Assembly (NCBI RefSeq): GCF_003334815.1
Contig: NZ_QOWO01000002.1
Source of the DNA: Escherichia coli
GTDB lineage: Bacteria; Pseudomonadota; Gammaproteobacteria; Enterobacterales; Enterobacteriaceae
DNA: 64,000 bases
Strand: one strand, 5' to 3'
Shown here one piece after another: positions 38,381 through 48,616 of this stretch. The notes below the pieces were generated by a model that was not told the DNA's origin, ran no database searches, and worked only from the letters and a program-made list of their open reading frames with translations. The stretch's first letter is position 1, and each line of letters starts with the position of its first letter. Made by a program: the position numbers and the translations under genes.

Positions 38381-40141
38381 TTATTTTGCCCAGAATGCTG
38401 CTTTGGCGCGCTGCAGCTTTTCGTAGGCCTTCAACAACGACTGATGTGCAGCAAACGCGTGCAGATCGCTATCTACCGGTTGCAGGCCGTAAAACGCCGC
38501 TTCGCCGCTCATTGCCGCACTGGCGGCTTCTACGGCATCTGCGCCGTACATGCGAACAAACGCATTCAGATATTGCAGCGGCTGGCGATCTTCTTCCTGT
38601 GCCAGTAATAACAACGTTTGCAGGCAGCGATAATAGTTGGCGCGTTCCGGACTAAATACTGATGAGTTAAACTCCATCGTCCATTCGGTCCAGACCAGAG
38701 CCTGTTCCAGATCGCCACCAGCCAGCGCCAGCATGGCTTTTAATTCACCGATACGCAGGGTGTACCAACCGTTATCCGACCCGGTCGCCAGACCCAACAG
38801 CTCACGCACGCGGGTAAAGTCATCAAAACCTTCTTCATCCAGTTGCTCGATGAGGTTCAGGTAATCTTCTTTTTCCCACTCGCTGCCTGGTAGCGAAAGA
38901 ATCGTTTCACGTAAATGGCTGCCCATACTGTTATTCGCGAGCCACAGATCTTCAGCCGGATAAATATCGGACATGCCAGGCACGATAATACGGCAAGCAT
39001 AAACGCCCAGATGCTCGTAATCGGCAATATAAACTTCTTTATCTTCTTTGTTGAAGATAGCCATCAGTGTGGCGAACTCTTCTTCCGTGGTGCCGGAGAA
39101 ATTCCAGTCCACAAACGGATAATCGGCATCCTGCTTGAACAGGTCCCAGGAGATTAAACCGCTGGAATCGATAAAGTGCGTTTCGAGGTTGGTATGTTCA
39201 GCGACTTCTTCATCATCGAAGGTTGGCGGAGTAAACACATCCAAATCTTTCAGGCCACGACCTTGCAGCAGCTCGGTCACGGTACGTTCCAGTGCTACGC
39301 CAAAATCAGGATGCGCACCGAAAGAGGCAAAGCAGGTACCGTTAGCAGGATTGAACAGTACCACGCAAATCACCGGATACTGGCCGCCAAGCGAACCGTC
39401 ATAAGCGAAGATTGGGAAACCCTCCGCTTCCAGCGTTTCGATGGCTTCAACTACTGCTGGGTAACGCGCCAGCACGTCTGCCGGGATCTCTGGCAGGCTG
39501 ATGCTTTCAGCAATAATGCGGTTTTTCACGTAGCGTTCGAAAACTTCAGACAATCCCTGAACGCGTGCTTCGTTGCGGGTATTACCTGCGGACATACCGT
39601 TGGAGACGTACAGGTTACCAATGATATTCATCGGAATATAAACGGTCTGATTGTCGGACTGACGCGTAAACGGCAGGCCGCAAATACCACGATCTTCGTT
39701 ACCGGATTGTAGGTCAATCAGCATGCTGCCGGTCAGTTCATTCTCCGGATCATAAAACGCGCGCAGACGGTCATCGAGCAGCCCTTCTGGCACATCGTCA
39801 TTTTCGGTCAGTGGGAACCATTTTTCGTTGGGATAATGCACGAACGGACCGTTGGCGATGGTTTCGCCCAGCCAGAAGTCCGCAAAAAAGTAGTTGGTTG
39901 AGAGACGCTCGAAATATTCACCGAGTGCAGAAGCCAGCGCCGCTTTCTTGGTTGCGCCTTTACCGTTGGTAAAACACAGTGCGCACTCTTTGTCGCGAAT
40001 ATGTACAGACCAGACGTTAGGCACGGGATTCAGCCAGGAGGCCTCTTCAATCTGAAAGCCGAGGTCTGAAAGTTTTTGCTGGAAGCGAGCGATGGAATCT
40101 TCCAGAGCGGCATCTTTGCCGGGGATAAATGTTTGCGTCAT
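38381..40141 (-). CDS. ycaO: YcaO-domain protein (ribosomal protein S12 methylthiolation accessory factor)
   Basis: ORF 38381..40174; start placed at MTQTFIPGKDAALEDSIARF (586 aa). Confidence 0.9.
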   Translation of the reverse strand: MTQTFIPGKDAALEDSIARFQQKLSDLGFQIEEASWLNPVPNVWSVHIRDKECALCFTNGKGATKKAALASALGEYFERLSTNYFFADFWLGETIANGPFVHYPNEKWFPLTENDDVPEGLLDDRLRAFYDPENELTGSMLIDLQSGNEDRGICGLPFTRQSDNQTVYIPMNIIGNLYVSNGMSAGNTRNEARVQGLSEVFERYVKNRIIAESISLPEIPADVLARYPAVVEAIETLEAEGFPIFAYDGSLGGQYPVICVVLFNPANGTCFASFGAHPDFGVALERTVTELLQGRGLKDLDVFTPPTFDDEEVAEHTNLETHFIDSSGLISWDLFKQDADYPFVDWNFSGTTEEEFATLMAIFNKEDKEVYIADYEHLGVYACRIIVPGMSDIYPAEDLWLANNSMGSHLRETILSLPGSEWEKEDYLNLIEQLDEEGFDDFTRVRELLGLATGSDNGWYTLRIGELKAMLALAGGDLEQALVWTEWTMEFNSSVFSPERANYYRCLQTLLLLAQEEDRQPLQYLNAFVRMYGADAVEAASAAMSGEAAFYGLQPVDSDLHAFAAHQSLLKAYEKLQRAKAAFWAK

Positions 40142-40270
40142 GAAAATCACTTTAGTCGTACGGAAAGCGCGCAATAATACGGGTTTTATCTCAAAGGCGC
40201 TATCACCGCCGCCATGCCGATGAACTGTTGACTATGCTTTTAGCGGATAAACCACGTTAAGAGCATAAAA

Positions 40271-40963
40271 ATGAAGGCGTTCGATCTCCACCGTATGGCA
40301 TTTGATAAAGTGCCTTTTGATTTCCTTGGCGAAGTTGCACTACGTAGTCTTTATACCTTTGTACTGGTCTTTTTGTTCCTCAAAATGACCGGAAGACGCG
40401 GTGTGCGGCAGATGTCGCTGTTTGAAGTTTTAATCATTCTGACGCTGGGATCAGCGGCGGGAGATGTGGCGTTTTATGATGATGTGCCGATGGTCCCGGT
40501 ACTTATCGTCTTTATTACTCTGGCGTTGTTATACCGCCTGGTAATGTGGTTGATGGCGCACAGTGAAAAACTGGAAGATCTTCTGGAAGGCAAGCCAGTT
40601 GTCATTATTGAAGATGGCGAGCTGGCCTGGTCGAAACTCAATAACTCCAACATGACGGAATTTGAGTTCTTTATGGAGCTACGATTGCGTGGCGTGGAGC
40701 AGCTGGGGCAGGTACGTCTGGCGATTCTCGAAACCAACGGGCAAATCAGTGTCTATTTCTTTGAAGATGACAAGGTGAAACCGGGTTTACTTATTTTACC
40801 CAGTGATTGTACGCAGCGTTACAAAGTGGTGCCGGAGTCGGCGGACTATGCCTGTATTCGTTGTAGTGAAATCATTCATATGAAAGCGGGGGAAAAACAA
40901 TTATGTCCGCGCTGTGCAAATCCAGAATGGACGAAGGCAAGTCGGGCAAAACGGGTGACCTGA
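40271..40963 (+). CDS. ycaP: DUF421 inner-membrane protein YcaP
   Basis: 230-aa ORF recognised as YcaP. Confidence 0.85.
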   Translation: MKAFDLHRMAFDKVPFDFLGEVALRSLYTFVLVFLFLKMTGRRGVRQMSLFEVLIILTLGSAAGDVAFYDDVPMVPVLIVFITLALLYRLVMWLMAHSEKLEDLLEGKPVVIIEDGELAWSKLNNSNMTEFEFFMELRLRGVEQLGQVRLAILETNGQISVYFFEDDKVKPGLLILPSDCTQRYKVVPESADYACIRCSEIIHMKAGEKQLCPRCANPEWTKASRAKRVT

Positions 40964-41161
40964 CAGTAAAAACATCGGCTTTTTGCTAATAATCCGAGAG
41001 ATTCTTTTGTGTGATGCAAGCCACATTTTTGCCCTCAACGGTTTTACTCATTGCGATGTGTGTCACTGAATGATAAAACCGATAGCCACAGGAATAATGT
41101 ATTACCTGTGGTCGCAATCGATTGACCGCGGGTTAATAGCAACGCAACGTGGTGAGGGGAA

Positions 41162-42250
41162 ATGGCTCAAATCTTCAATTTTAGTTCTGGTCCGGCAATG
41201 CTACCGGCAGAGGTGCTTAAACAGGCTCAACAGGAACTGCGCGACTGGAACGGTCTTGGTACGTCGGTGATGGAAGTGAGTCACCGTGGCAAAGAGTTCA
41301 TTCAGGTTGCAGAGGAAGCCGAGAAGGATTTTCGCGATCTTCTTAATGTCCCCTCCAACTACAAGGTATTATTCTGCCATGGCGGTGGTCGCGGTCAGTT
41401 TGCTGCGGTACCGCTGAATATTCTCGGTGATAAAACCACCGCAGATTATGTTGATGCCGGTTACTGGGCGGCAAGTGCCATTAAAGAAGCGAAAAAATAC
41501 TGCACGCCTAATGTCTTTGACGCCAAAGTGACTGTTGATGGTCTGCGCGCGGTTAAGCCAATGCGTGAATGGCAACTCTCTGATAATGCTGCTTATATGC
41601 ATTATTGCCCGAATGAAACCATCGATGGTATCGCCATCGACGAAACGCCAGACTTCGGCGCAGATGTGGTGGTCGCCGCTGACTTCTCTTCAACCATTCT
41701 TTCCCGTCCGATTGACGTCAGCCGTTATGGTGTAATTTACGCTGGCGCGCAGAAAAATATCGGCCCGGCTGGCCTGACAATCGTCATCGTTCGTGAAGAT
41801 TTGCTGGGCAAAGCGAATATCGCGTGTCCGTCGATTCTGGATTATTCCATCCTCAACGATAACGGCTCCATGTTTAACACGCCGCCGACATTTGCCTGGT
41901 ATCTATCTGGTCTGGTCTTTAAATGGCTGAAAGCGAACGGCGGTGTAGCTGAAATGGATAAAATCAATCAGCAAAAAGCAGAACTGCTATATGGGGTGAT
42001 TGATAACAGCGATTTCTACCGCAATGACGTGGCGAAAGCTAACCGTTCGCGGATGAACGTGCCGTTCCAGTTGGCGGACAGTGCGCTTGACAAATTGTTC
42101 CTTGAAGAGTCTTTTGCTGCTGGCCTTCATGCACTGAAAGGTCACCGTGTGGTCGGCGGAATGCGCGCTTCTATTTATAACGCCATGCCGCTGGAAGGCG
42201 TTAAAGCGCTGACAGACTTCATGGTTGAGTTCGAACGCCGTCACGGTTAA
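41162..42250 (+). CDS. serC: Phosphoserine/phosphohydroxythreonine aminotransferase
   Basis: 362-aa [29 protein letters not shown]...; PLP-dependent class V aminotransferase. Confidence 0.96.
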
Positions 42251-42269
42251 TGCCGAAATTTTGCTTAAT

Positions 42270-42295
42270 CCCCACAGCCAGCCTGTGGGGTTTTT
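42270..42295 (+). terminator. Intercistronic hairpin/attenuator between serC and aroA
   Basis: ccccacag-ccagc-ctgtgggg followed by TTTTTATTT. Confidence 0.5.
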
Positions 42296-42320
42296 ATTTC
42301 TGTTGTAGAGAGTTGAGTTC

Positions 42321-43604
42321 ATGGAATCCCTGACGTTACAACCCATCGCTCGTGTCGATGGCACTATTAATCTGCCCGGTTCCAAGAGCGTTTCTAACCG
42401 CGCTTTATTGCTGGCGGCATTAGCACACGGCAAAACAGTATTAACCAATCTGCTGGATAGCGATGACGTGCGCCATATGCTGAATGCATTAACAGCGTTA
42501 GGGGTAAGCTATACGCTTTCAGCCGATCGTACGCGTTGCGAAATTATCGGTAACGGCGGTCCATTACACGCAGAAGGTGCCCTGGAGTTGTTCCTCGGTA
42601 ACGCCGGAACGGCAATGCGTCCGCTGGCGGCAGCTCTTTGTCTGGGTAGCAATGATATTGTGCTGACCGGTGAGCCGCGTATGAAAGAACGCCCGATTGG
42701 TCATCTGGTGGATGCGCTGCGCCTGGGCGGGGCGAAGATCACTTACCTGGAACAAGAAAATTATCCGCCGTTGCGTTTACAGGGCGGCTTTACTGGCGGC
42801 AACGTTGACGTTGATGGCTCCGTTTCCAGCCAATTCCTCACCGCACTGTTAATGACTGCGCCTCTTGCGCCGGAAGATACGGTGATTCGTATTAAAGGCG
42901 ATCTGGTTTCTAAACCTTATATCGACATCACACTCAATCTGATGAAGACGTTTGGTGTTGAAATTGAAAATCAGCACTATCAACAATTTGTCGTAAAAGG
43001 CGGGCAGTCTTATCAGTCTCCGGGTACTTATTTGGTCGAAGGCGATGCATCTTCGGCTTCTTACTTTCTGGCAGCAGCAGCAATCAAAGGCGGCACTGTA
43101 AAAGTGACCGGTATTGGACGTAACAGTATGCAGGGTGATATTCGCTTTGCTGATGTGCTGGAAAAAATGGGCGCGACCATTTGCTGGGGCGATGATTATA
43201 TTTCCTGCACGCGTGGTGAACTGAACGCTATTGATATGGATATGAACCATATTCCTGATGCGGCGATGACCATTGCCACGGCGGCGTTATTTGCAAAAGG
43301 CACCACCACGCTGCGCAATATCTATAACTGGCGTGTTAAAGAGACCGATCGCCTGTTTGCGATGGCAACAGAACTGCGTAAAGTCGGCGCGGAAGTGGAA
43401 GAGGGGCACGATTACATTCGTATCACTCCTCCGGAAAAACTGAACTTTGCCGAGATCGCGACATACAATGATCACCGGATGGCGATGTGTTTCTCGCTGG
43501 TGGCGTTGTCAGATACACCAGTGACGATTCTTGATCCCAAATGCACGGCCAAAACATTTCCGGATTATTTCGAGCAGCTGGCGCGGATTAGCCAGGCAGC
43601 CTGA
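42321..43604 (+). CDS. aroA: 3-phosphoshikimate 1-carboxyvinyltransferase (EPSP synthase)
   Basis: 427-aa [38 protein letters not shown]... Confidence 0.96.
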
Positions 43605-43650
43605 ATGAACAACGGGCAATAAATAGCCAAATCTTTCTTTATCAAAACGT

Positions 43651-43663
43651 CGGCACATTGTCG
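43651..43663. repeat. Left copy of 13-bp target-site duplication (cggcacattgtcg) flanking IS4
   Basis: Identical 13-mer directly abuts both IS4 termini (43651-43663 and 45090-45102). Confidence 0.85.
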
Positions 43664-45089
43664 TAATGCCAGTCAGTTAAGCAACTGACTGGCTCTTTTT
43701 CGGGGCTGTGGGGTATTTCCAGGGCCTCTCCTTTACCACTCTCGGGAAGGCCCTTTCCCTTCTTGTCGGTAATTTCACAAGTTGTCCCATACTTGCAAGA
43801 TCGCGCATCAGCTCCGGTATACGTCCCGGTGAAGCGCCCTGCAATGTCATCAGCATTCTCATCACCATTCCGCATGATTCTGAGAAACTCAGTTGATTCG
43901 GCCAGTAACCTTTCAGATGTTCCGCCATTTTAATTATCTGATATCTCACCAGATTATAAGCCAGTAAGACACCCCACAGCTCTTGCTCCACAAGCTCCGG
44001 TTTTTTACTTCTCAGCGTCAGCCTGCTCAGTTGCATCGTCTGTTTTATCTCCCTGTATCCCAGTTCGATTTCCCAGCGATGACTGTACAGATCCGCCATT
44101 TCTCCTCCGGGGAAGCGCATGGCGTCCGTCATCGACGTCAGCAGATGGCAGACTTTTCCTTTGCGCGTCACGGTCAGCAGGCGGGCAGTCACTTCATTTC
44201 CCAGTCCCGGCCACTTTTTTCGTGCCTGCGGGCTGGTTTTCAGCTTCACCAGATGATCGCCTTTACCCAGTTTTCTGATCTCTTCATATTGCGCTCCCTT
44301 TCTGAGAGGTATCATCCAGTGGCGGTGTTCTCCCGCCAGGCTCCAGGCATTTAACAGTCCCAGTGAGTAATAACCTTTATCCATTAACGTCAGAGTGTTA
44401 TCGCCGGTTTGTTCTATAAGTTGCTCAGCAAGCTCATTTTCGCTGTTCTTCATCGTGCCGAAGGCTGCAGCCGTCAGCAGATGGCTGGTCAGTTCCATCT
44501 GGCAGACCATTTTGACCTGCGGGTAGAGCGCCGGGTTCCCGGCATGTGTCTGGCGGGGGAAGGCTGCATCGTTCTCTGGTGTATCCGGTGTGCGCCAGAA
44601 CACACCATCGATGGCCAGCAGGGTCAGGCCGCACCAGTGCGGATGCGGCGTGGCGTTATGCCAGAGCTGCGCTGTTTTCGTGAACACGCGGCGGACAGCC
44701 TCACTTCCCAGGCGCTGGCGGGCCTGAATAACGGCACTGGGGGCAACGAAGGGGCGATTGCCCGGCAGCATGATGTCCAGGCGATTCACAATCTGGTGAA
44801 GAGGTTCTTTACGCTCAAGCGCCATGCCAACAATACACCAGACCATCATTTCGAGGGGAAGACGGCGCTTGCGTAGCGTTACAGTACCTGATTCGGCAAG
44901 GCAACGAGAGATGAGTTCGGGGTCGAGGTAATCCCCCAGAGAAGTCAGTGGGTTACGCAGAGAATCGTAACGGGATACCAGATCAAGAGCCTGTCCAATG
45001 TGCATAAAAAAATCCGGAAACAAGTGAGCGTTTCCGGATTCTTACACAGCCACTGGATCGGTCAACTGATCCTTAACTGATCGGCATTA
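43664..45089 (-). mobile_element. IS4: Insertion sequence IS4 (1426 bp), complete
   Basis: Encodes the IS4 transposase InsG; 18-bp imperfect terminal inverted repeats taatgccagtcagttaag and taatgccgatcagttaag (16/18); length 1426 bp; 13-bp direct duplication of target. Confidence 0.92.
43677..45005 (-). CDS. insG: IS4 transposase (DDE family)
   Basis: ORF 43677..45023; start placed at [24 protein letters not shown] (442 aa); recognised as IS4 InsG. Confidence 0.93.
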
Positions 45090-45102
45090 CGGCACATTGT
45101 CG
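45090..45102. repeat. Right copy of 13-bp target-site duplication (cggcacattgtcg) flanking IS4
   Basis: Identical to 43651-43663; followed by gcgtttttttt, the 3' remainder of the interrupted aroA terminator. Confidence 0.85.
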
Positions 45103-45211
45103 GCGTTTTTTTTCGGACCTTGTGAGTCATTTTGATTAATGGTAGCGTCGCTTGTCAATGTAAGTTGTTGATACATAATATTTATATATGATTAATCAAC
45201 GGATGATTCAC

Positions 45212-45976
45212 ATGAAGAATACTAAATTACTGCTGGCGATTGCGACCTCTGCAGCATTACTGACAGGGTGTCAAAATACCCACGGTATTGATACCAATAT
45301 GGCTATCAGCTCCGGTTTAAATGCCTATAAAGCAGCAACATTAAGCGATGCCGATGCAAAAGCGATTGCCAATCAGGGCTGTGCCGAAATGGACAGCGGC
45401 AATCAAGTCGCAAGTAAATCCAGCAAGTACGGTAAACGTCTGGCAAAAATCGCCAAAGCATTGGGTAACAATATTAATGGCACGCCGGTCAACTATAAGG
45501 TTTATATGACCAGCGACGTCAACGCATGGGCGATGGCGAACGGCTGTGTTCGTGTCTACAGTGGCCTGATGGACATGATGAATGACAACGAAATTGAAGG
45601 CGTTCTGGGCCATGAACTGGGCCACGTCGCGTTGGGTCACTCGCTGGCTGAAATGAAAGCTTCTTATGCGATCGTTGCCGCACGCGATGCCATTTCAGCT
45701 ACCAGCGGTGTGGCTTCCCAGCTTTCCCGCTCACAATTAGGTGATATCGCAGAAGGCGCTATCAATGCTAAATACTCCCGTGATAAAGAGTCCGAAGCAG
45801 ATGATTTCTCCTTTGATCTGTTGAAGAAACGTGGCATCAGCACCCAGGGGCTGGTTGGCAGCTTTGAAAAACTGGCTAGCCTGGATGGCGGTCGCACCCA
45901 GTCCATGTTTGACTCTCACCCACCATCAACAGAGCGTGCGCAACACATCCGTGATCGTATCGCCTCTGGTAAGTAA
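45212..45976 (+). CDS. loiP: M48-family metalloprotease lipoprotein YcaL (LoiP)
   Basis: ORF 45188..45976; start placed at MKNTKLLLAIATSAALLTGCQ (lipobox); HELGH zinc motif. Confidence 0.9.
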   Translation: MKNTKLLLAIATSAALLTGCQNTHGIDTNMAISSGLNAYKAATLSDADAKAIANQGCAEMDSGNQVASKSSKYGKRLAKIAKALGNNINGTPVNYKVYMTSDVNAWAMANGCVRVYSGLMDMMNDNEIEGVLGHELGHVALGHSLAEMKASYAIVAARDAISATSGVASQLSRSQLGDIAEGAINAKYSRDKESEADDFSFDLLKKRGISTQGLVGSFEKLASLDGGRTQSMFDSHPPSTERAQHIRDRIASGK

Positions 45977-45991
45977 ATCATTGTCATCTTT

Positions 45992-46014
45992 CGGGCTGGT
46001 CTTCTGCCAGCCCG
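45992..46014 (+). terminator. Possible terminator hairpin after ycaL
   Basis: cgggctgg-tcttctg-ccagcccg; no strong T-run, so weak. Confidence 0.35.
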
Positions 46015-46148
46015 CTATAATTGCGCAATAAATCCCCATCTGAATACAGACAAAACTGGTTTTTGCACACAACGTTAACGATTTGTGGCGTCGGCGCGTA
46101 TAATGCGCGCGGTTATGTTAACGGTACGCCTGTTTTAAGGAGATAAAG

Positions 46149-46832
46149 ATGACGGCAATTGCCCCGGTTATTACCATTGATGGCCCAAGCGGTGCAGGGA
46201 AAGGCACCTTGTGTAAGGCTATGGCGGAAGCGTTGCAATGGCATCTGCTGGACTCGGGTGCAATTTATCGCGTACTGGCATTGGCGGCATTACATCACCA
46301 TGTTGATGTTGCGTCGGAAGATGCGCTGGTACCGCTGGCATCCCATCTGGATGTACGTTTTGTGTCGACCAATGGCAATCTGGAAGTGATCCTCGAAGGG
46401 GAAGATGTCAGCGGCGAAATTCGTACTCAGGAAGTGGCGAATGCAGCTTCACAAGTCGCGGCATTCCCACGCGTTCGTGAAGCATTATTGCGTCGCCAAC
46501 GCGCGTTTCGCGAATTACCAGGTCTGATTGCCGATGGCCGCGACATGGGAACGGTGGTATTCCCTGATGCACCAGTGAAAATTTTCCTTGACGCCTCCTC
46601 GGAAGAACGTGCGCATCGCCGCATGCTACAGTTGCAGGAGAAGGGCTTTAGTGTTAACTTTGAGCGCCTTTTGGCCGAGATCAAAGAACGCGACGACCGC
46701 GATCGTAACCGAGCGGTAGCGCCACTGGTTCCGGCAGCCGATGCTTTAGTGTTGGATTCCACCACCTTAAGCATTGAGCAAGTGATTGAAAAAGCGCTAC
46801 AATACGCGCGCCAGAAATTGGCTCTCGCATAA
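46149..46832 (+). CDS. cmk: Cytidylate kinase
   Basis: 227-aa ORF; P-loop GPSGAGKGT. Confidence 0.95.
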
Positions 46833-46942
46833 GCGACCGAATTTGCAGTACCCCCGTTGCAATGGAATGACAGCGGGTATGTTAAACAACCCCATCCGGC
46901 ATGGAGCCAGGTGGACGTTAAATATAAACCTGAAGATTAAAC

Positions 46943-48616
46943 ATGACTGAATCTTTTGCTCAACTCTTTGAAGAGTCCTTAAAAGAAATCGAAACCCGCC
47001 CGGGTTCTATCGTTCGTGGCGTTGTTGTTGCTATCGACAAAGACGTAGTACTGGTTGACGCTGGTCTGAAATCTGAGTCCGCCATCCCGGCTGAGCAGTT
47101 CAAAAACGCCCAGGGCGAGCTGGAAATCCAGGTAGGTGACGAAGTTGACGTTGCTCTGGACGCAGTAGAAGACGGCTTCGGTGAAACTCTGCTGTCCCGT
47201 GAGAAAGCTAAACGTCACGAAGCCTGGATCACGCTGGAAAAAGCTTACGAAGATGCTGAAACTGTTACCGGTGTTATCAACGGCAAAGTTAAGGGCGGCT
47301 TCACTGTTGAGCTGAACGGTATTCGTGCGTTCCTGCCAGGTTCTCTGGTAGACGTTCGTCCGGTGCGTGACACTCTGCACCTGGAAGGCAAAGAGCTTGA
47401 ATTTAAAGTAATCAAGCTGGATCAGAAGCGCAACAACGTTGTTGTTTCTCGTCGTGCCGTTATCGAATCCGAAAACAGCGCAGAGCGCGATCAGCTGCTG
47501 GAAAACCTGCAGGAAGGCATGGAAGTTAAAGGTATCGTTAAGAACCTCACTGACTACGGTGCATTCGTTGATCTGGGCGGCGTTGACGGCCTGCTGCACA
47601 TCACTGACATGGCCTGGAAACGCGTTAAGCATCCGAGCGAAATCGTCAACGTGGGCGACGAAATCACTGTTAAAGTGCTGAAGTTCGACCGCGAACGTAC
47701 CCGTGTATCCCTGGGCCTGAAACAGCTGGGCGAAGATCCGTGGGTAGCTATCGCTAAACGTTATCCGGAAGGTACCAAACTGACTGGTCGCGTGACCAAC
47801 CTGACCGACTACGGCTGCTTCGTTGAAATCGAAGAAGGCGTTGAAGGCCTGGTACACGTTTCCGAAATGGATTGGACCAACAAAAACATCCACCCGTCCA
47901 AAGTTGTTAACGTTGGCGATGTAGTGGAAGTTATGGTTCTGGATATCGACGAAGAACGTCGTCGTATCTCCCTGGGTCTGAAACAGTGCAAAGCTAACCC
48001 GTGGCAGCAGTTCGCGGAAACCCACAACAAGGGCGACCGTGTTGAAGGTAAAATCAAGTCTATCACTGACTTCGGTATCTTCATCGGCCTGGACGGCGGC
48101 ATCGACGGCCTGGTTCACCTGTCTGACATCTCCTGGAACGTTGCAGGCGAAGAAGCAGTTCGTGAATACAAAAAAGGCGACGAAATCGCTGCAGTTGTTC
48201 TGCAGGTTGACGCAGAACGTGAACGTATCTCCCTGGGCGTTAAACAGCTCGCAGAAGATCCGTTCAACAACTGGGTTGCTCTGAACAAGAAAGGCGCTAT
48301 CGTAACCGGTAAAGTAACTGCAGTTGACGCTAAAGGCGCAACCGTAGAACTGGCTGACGGCGTTGAAGGTTACCTGCGTGCTTCTGAAGCATCCCGTGAC
48401 CGCGTTGAAGACGCTACCCTGGTTCTGAGCGTTGGCGACGAAGTTGAAGCTAAATTCACCGGCGTTGATCGTAAAAACCGCGCAATCAGCCTGTCTGTTC
48501 GTGCGAAAGACGAAGCTGACGAGAAAGATGCAATCGCAACTGTTAACAAACAGGAAGATGCAAACTTCTCCAACAACGCAATGGCTGAAGCTTTCAAAGC
48601 AGCTAAAGGCGAGTAA
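46943..48616 (+). CDS. rpsA: 30S ribosomal protein S1
   Basis: 557-aa ORF with six S1 repeats; highly biased codon usage. Confidence 0.97.

Follow-up and report, generated by a model that had tools for sequence, protein, structure and literature searches.

The terminator between rpsU and dnaG, within the rpsU-dnaG-rpoD operon, is a leaky intrinsic terminator internal to an operon and fixes transcript ratios. An internal terminator is already known from the serC(pdxF)-aroA operon of Escherichia coli K-12 as well, where RNase T2 protection by Man, Pease and Winkler reportedly assigned 80-90% of the serC transcripts to a single-gene class ending between serC and aroA, and where the co-transcripts are said to end at a second Rho-independent terminator past aroA. 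The sources for the K-12 internal terminator are Duncan & Coggins 1986 (Biochem J 234:49) and Man, Pease & Winkler 1997 (J Bacteriol 179:3458). The two genes have been described as forming one bicistronic mRNA, and the action of GcvB on the serC 5' UTR lowers the mRNAs of serC and aroA to a similar extent (PMC11878033). A full-text literature search, the coverage of which did not extend to the primary papers, returned no paper describing the terminator site. From the genome-wide 3'-end catalogue of Adams et al. 2021 (PMC7815308 supplements), serC, aroA, ycaL and cmk are all missing, and downstream of rpsA it records no 3' end; since the neighbouring genes are missing as well, this catalogue is silent, rather than negative, on serC-aroA. 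Neither serC nor aroA occurs in the SMRT-Cappable-seq supplements (Yan 2018).

In the 64-kb stretch of E. coli DNA that was analysed (hereafter the window), the gene order ycaP-serC-aroA-ycaL-cmk is that of K-12, and the element between serC and aroA occupies the same locus and has the same sequence as the K-12 internal terminator, so that in the element itself there is no difference between the two; compared with K-12, the one change is at the operon's distal end, where an IS4 element splits the aroA terminator in this strain. As at rpsU-dnaG, a hairpin and a U-tract stand between co-transcribed genes, an alternative fold is lacking, and the gene needed in larger amounts is the upstream one. 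The genes and the sequence are, however, unlike those of rpsU-dnaG, and serC and aroA serve separate pathways, that of serine and vitamin B6 in the one case and that of chorismate in the other. The element resembles the trp and pyrBI leaders, T-boxes and riboswitches in that termination would take place ahead of a downstream biosynthetic gene, but it has no antiterminator, no conserved leader peptide and no Rfam family, and, unlike the regulated attenuators, it follows a full-length gene and not a leader. With REP/BIME elements, such as the one at malE-malF, it shares the potential of an intercistronic hairpin to stabilise the upstream mRNA segment, whereas it differs from them in being single-copy, in having a T-run and in lacking the REP consensus. 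The positions of the features discussed below are collected in Table 1.

Table 1. Features of the serC-aroA junction and of the IS4-bearing distal end of the operon, in window coordinates.
Feature	Position	Strand	Evidence or remark
serC (3-phosphoserine/phosphohydroxythreonine aminotransferase), promoter-proximal	41162..42250	+	362-aa ORF; RefSeq annotation of 99.9-100% identical matches
serC stop codon TAA	42248-42250	+	
27-codon ORF	42250-42333	+	ATG overlaps the serC stop (TAATG); spans the terminator; ends 10 nt inside aroA
U-rich stretch, 19 nt, from serC stop to hairpin	42251..42269	+	sequence; TGCCGAAATTTTGCTTAAT
Terminator hairpin, perfect 8-bp stem, 6 G-C pairs, 5-nt loop	42270..42290	+	consensus scan, folding, covariation
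Hairpin 5' arm CCCCACAG	42270-42277	+	
Hairpin loop CCAGC	42278-42282	+	
Hairpin 3' arm CTGTGGGG	42283-42290	+	
U-tract TTTTTATTT, expected transcript release site	42291..42299	+	sequence, consensus scan
Remaining spacer from U-tract to aroA ATG, CTGTTGTAGAGAGTTGAGTTC		+	
aroA ribosome-binding site GAGAGT, 7 nt upstream of ATG	42308..42313	+	alignment A1
aroA (EPSP synthase), promoter-distal, expected to be reached by read-through only	42321..43604	+	427-aa ORF; annotation
aroA terminator 5' remnant, including first duplication copy (43651-43663)	43644..43663	+	3' stem base and T-run lost
IS4, 1,426 bp	43664..45089	-	'IS4-like element IS4 family transposase' annotation; terminal inverted repeats; target duplication
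IS4 aroA-proximal hairpin, 11-bp stem, then TCTTTTT	43668..43700	+	consensus scan; folding
IS4 transposase ORF, 448 codons	43677-45023	-	
aroA terminator 3' remnant: second duplication copy, GCG, 8 T	45090..45113	+	-4.2 kcal/mol

From the stop codon of serC to the ATG of aroA (42321) there is a gap of 70 nt, in which the hairpin lies 19 nt past the serC TAA and 30 nt ahead of the aroA ATG, with the U-tract starting at the base right after the stem. When folded alone, the hairpin has a free energy of -14.1 kcal/mol (z = -3.5); for the entire 70-nt spacer the value is -18.7 kcal/mol (z = -2.0). The arrangement is non-random: when the spacer was shuffled 20,000 times with its dinucleotides preserved, no shuffle reproduced a hairpin with a T-run, for which the minima were set at 8 bp of stem, 6 G-C pairs within it and, behind it, 6 T in 8 positions. 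The coordinates, the folding and the shuffles confirm exactly what the first-pass annotation had noticed at this place, namely a perfect 8-bp stem and then a T-run between serC and aroA. A comparable terminator filter, applied to both strands of the window, returned five sites only, of which the four on the plus strand are each preceded by a long open frame that ends 8-63 nt before the site, and for the single minus-strand site this distance is 366 nt. On the opposite strand, the serC-aroA stem is followed by ATTAAGCA and not by a T-run, which indicates that the terminator works one way only. The features by which intrinsic terminators are recognised are present together: a G+C-rich stem-loop (a stem of about 5-12 bp and a short loop), a U-rich tract that directly follows the stem on the transcribed strand, a location downstream of a stop codon, in sense orientation and within a transcribed region, and conservation of the structure rather than of the sequence in relatives. 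A consensus scan of the serC-aroA spacer gave no match to a promoter that would belong to aroA itself.

The element is very probably a Rho-independent (intrinsic) terminator internal to the serC-aroA operon, at which most serC transcripts would be released. Taken together, the co-transcription of the two genes, the one-directional terminator and the lack of a promoter match in the spacer imply that transcription from the serC promoter mostly stops at approximately 42294-42300. In the mechanism that we propose, RNA polymerase would initiate upstream of serC and transcribe the G+C-rich inverted repeat located 19 nt past the stop codon, and the nascent 8-bp hairpin would fold while the weak rU:dA hybrid of UUUUUAUUU occupies the active site. 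The majority of the complexes would release a monocistronic serC mRNA in the interval just given, and a minority would read through to yield a serC-aroA bicistronic mRNA, on which a conserved ribosome-binding site of its own, GAGAG, would serve the translation of aroA; a single promoter would in this way supply serC message in fixed excess over that of aroA. As a 3'-terminal structure, the hairpin should also shield the short serC transcript from 3' exonucleases. That transcripts end at this hairpin, and that they do so with partial efficiency, we infer from these features or take from the literature. The proposal in the first-pass annotation of a partial terminator setting the serC:aroA ratio thus appears well founded, being in agreement with the canonical sense-strand anatomy, the conservation, the absence of a promoter match in the spacer and the co-transcription. 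A terminator at this position would explain how one promoter serves two demands, for serine and vitamin B6 as against chorismate. To what has been known from K-12 for decades, the present analysis makes the modest additions of a compensatory maintenance across the Enterobacterales, of near-invariance in about 5,400 E. coli genomes and of the probable replacement of the aroA terminator by an IS4 end; these leave the current understanding unchanged, and the finding is correct but ordinary.

Within E. coli, the junction hardly varies. A 120-bp segment spanning it (window 42221-42340) is present in every one of 5,426 complete E. coli genomes, with 100% identity in K-12 XL1-Blue and O157:H7, and the 38-nt core, which consists of the hairpin and the T-run, is at least 99% identical in approximately 5,405 of the 5,415 matching records. 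The most divergent E. coli alleles have 95.8% identity over the 120 bp, with changes confined to serC third-codon positions, and elsewhere in the spacer ahead of the hairpin and in aroA; the stem, the T-run and the ribosome-binding site show no change in these alleles. Among the matches to the junction, five come from records that carry a plasmid label.

For the comparison with relatives, one genome per species was searched with AroA, which gave 80 loci. serC is located immediately upstream of aroA in about 50 species of Enterobacterales; in the same 80-locus scan, this was not so in Vibrionaceae, Orbaceae and Pasteurellaceae. The spacers analysed for hairpins were those of 50 Enterobacterales, 30-400 nt long, and every one (50/50) contains a hairpin of -10 kcal/mol or better, with a stem that in 48 of the 50 is equalled by no more than 5% of shuffles. 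Within the Enterobacteriaceae, represented by 20 genera, the hairpins are in all cases (20/20) CCCC...GGGG-based, with free energies of -12 to -18.5 kcal/mol, and in all cases are followed by a T-rich tail (5-7 T in 8); the median distance from the end of the hairpin to the aroA ATG is 31 nt. In the alignment of these 20 genera (A1), 94.4% of the stem cells are paired, versus 38-66% in slid controls, in which the 3' pairing partners were shifted along the alignment. Two of the stem pairs show double (compensatory) changes, with G-C turning into A-U in five sequences, and RNAalifold recovers the terminator helix only. The GAGA of the aroA ribosome-binding site is invariant in the same alignment, and the GT that follows is nearly so. 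A CM-derived alignment (A2) was left out of the pair counts because it mixes in minus-strand matches of the palindrome.

Outside the Enterobacteriaceae, other forms of the junction occur. In Photorhabdus and Xenorhabdus (loci L035, L039, L042, L044 and L045), the stable hairpin directly adjoins the serC stop codon and no T-run follows it, and the spacer to aroA is about 90-130 nt long; given the missing T-run, the hairpin may act differently in some Morganellaceae. The gap between serC and aroA reaches 0.8-1.2 kb in Budvicia (L037), in a Psychromonas MAG (L074) and in Edwardsiella ictaluri (L075). A gap of this size could fit an inserted gene, which in Psychromonas may be hisC-like, and a hisC-like gene in the serC-aroA gap has been described for some lineages in a study of synteny (PMC1173090).

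As the hairpin begins only 19 nt past the serC stop codon, it is conceivable that the ribosome finishing serC hinders its folding and in this way modulates the efficiency of the terminator: a lead ribosome trailing the polymerase closely would promote read-through into aroA, and a lagging one would leave termination complete. We consider such tuning rather unlikely, and it would in any case refine the explanation by an internal terminator and not replace it. The precedent is lambda tR2, which, when placed after a reporter gene, terminates with an efficiency that goes from near 0 to about 0.9 as the distance from the stop codon grows, with the maximum beyond 27-30 nt and with an efficiency of either 0.12 or 0.8, depending on sequence, at 17-18 nt; below approximately 27-30 nt, the effect of distance is due to the lead ribosome interfering with hairpin folding (PMC4824070). 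In the 20 Enterobacteriaceae genera, the distance from the serC stop codon to the hairpin has a median of 17 nt and is mostly 15-21 nt, despite the poor conservation of the spacer sequence in between, and because these values fall in the range tuned at lambda tR2, read-through into aroA might follow the coupling of serC transcription and translation, although we would give this no great weight. In Erwiniaceae, Yersiniaceae and Pectobacteriaceae, however, the distance is 25-200 nt, beyond the sensitive range, and the hairpin persists all the same, which argues that tuning is not essential, and a short spacer could merely reflect the compactness of the genome. If ribosomes did tune the terminator, the serC:aroA ratio would not be fixed and would respond to translational capacity or to the supply of charged tRNA. 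In a less likely variant of the same idea, coupling-dependent read-through would be mediated by the 27-codon ORF that bridges the two genes in Escherichia. This ORF has also been considered in its own right, as a device by which ribosomes that re-initiate on it would open the hairpin and be brought to the start of aroA, and it is indeed retained in E. albertii and in the divergent E. coli alleles. Nevertheless, it is absent from 17 of the 19 other Enterobacteriaceae, all of which retain the terminator and the ribosome-binding site, and on this ground it was rejected as a conserved feature; moreover, it has no Shine-Dalgarno sequence of its own, and aroA possesses its own invariant GAGAG, which speaks against delivery from upstream and makes a role of this kind most improbable. 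Among the genera sampled, the ORF was seen only in E. coli and E. albertii.

A different possibility is that the hairpin serves mainly in mRNA processing or stability, with a single RNA being cut in the AU-rich spacer and the serC half being protected from 3' exonucleases, in the manner of the REP elements of malE-malF. A stable hairpin bordered on both sides by AU-rich single strands would suit such a role, as would the hairpins without a T-run in some Morganellaceae, yet the T-run that directly follows the stem in 20 of 20 Enterobacteriaceae would not be required if the hairpin were a stabiliser and no more, the element is single-copy and not a dispersed REP-type repeat, and the literature attributes the short serC transcript to termination; we regard processing as the main function as quite improbable. 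The 38-nt core occurs at a median of one place per E. coli genome, and a dispersed palindrome of the REP/BIME type, which would be found in many copies, was rejected for this reason; in the 64-kb window, a covariance model built on the spacer (R1) hits the sense strand once, from which it likewise follows that the element is not a dispersed repeat. The first-pass annotation had named an attenuator next to the partial terminator. A signal-responsive attenuator, in which a leader peptide, a riboswitch or a protein would toggle between terminator and antiterminator folds, might be expected from the position between genes of two amino-acid pathways, and the minimum free energy fold of the single sequence does lengthen the base of the stem by pairing 42263-42269 with 42312-42318. 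This extended stem was rejected, as RNAalifold does not find it conserved; RNAalifold gives the terminator helix alone and no conserved, mutually exclusive antiterminator. Furthermore, the stretch ahead of the hairpin, counted from the serC stop codon, is just 19 nt long, neither a conserved leader ORF nor a sensor RNA family was found, the sole spanning ORF being limited to Escherichia, and an Rfam scan of window positions 40000-48000 at E <= 1 gave no match. With none of these signs of regulation found, the attenuator is not borne out, and we see hardly any chance that the element is one. The plain, one-directional internal terminator is the reading that we retain.

At the distal end of the operon, the disruption of a downstream terminator by IS4 that the first-pass annotation had described is real. 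The 13-bp sequence CGGCACATTGTCG, which is single-copy within the aroA terminator hairpin of K-12, flanks IS4 here as a direct repeat (43651-43663 and 45090-45102), so that the element and its target duplication split the aroA terminator in two. The insertion has the attributes of IS4, that is, a length of about 1.4 kb, imperfect terminal inverted repeats (the ends being TAATGCCAGTCAGTTAAG and CTTAACTGATCGGCATTA), a duplication in the range of 11-13 bp and a single transposase ORF, and it is found at the aroA terminator in 40 of the 5,426 complete E. coli genomes, including that of NCTC86. The K-12 aroA terminator (L081:3923-3957) reads AAAACGUCGGCA-CAU-UGUCGGCGUUUU, followed by more U residues (8 T after the hairpin), and folds with -14.0 kcal/mol; the upstream remnant in this strain (window 43644-43672) has -3.8 kcal/mol (z = -0.3) and no T-run. 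Four bases into IS4, another hairpin begins, with -18.7 kcal/mol (z = -5.4), which judging from its fold and from the T-rich sequence behind it probably substitutes as the terminator for aroA transcripts, and these would be expected to stop approximately 35-45 nt later than in K-12. The insertion probably lengthens the aroA 3' UTR slightly and leaves the internal terminator unaffected. The suggestion that IS4 alters the 3' processing of the operon can accordingly be kept for the distal aroA end and has to be dropped for the internal terminator, which is base for base that of IS4-free strains. The hairpin in the IS4 end is oriented such that it could block outside transcription from entering IS4.

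Another insertion sequence is associated with the two terminators in E. coli P31_YH1_02.21 (L082, NZ_CP085063), where copies of IS200C in the same orientation are located at about 3079, which corresponds to window 42298/42299, and at about 5167. IS200C adjoins the T-run of the serC terminator (...GGGGTTTTTATT joined to GTGCACAG) and also that of the aroA terminator (...GGCGTTTTTTTT joined to GTGCACAG). In this strain, the terminator and the hairpin of the IS200 left end both separate the serC promoter from aroA. The presence of IS200C immediately after the T-runs of both terminators in one strain suggests, on the basis of these two insertions, that IS200 targets the T-runs of terminators.
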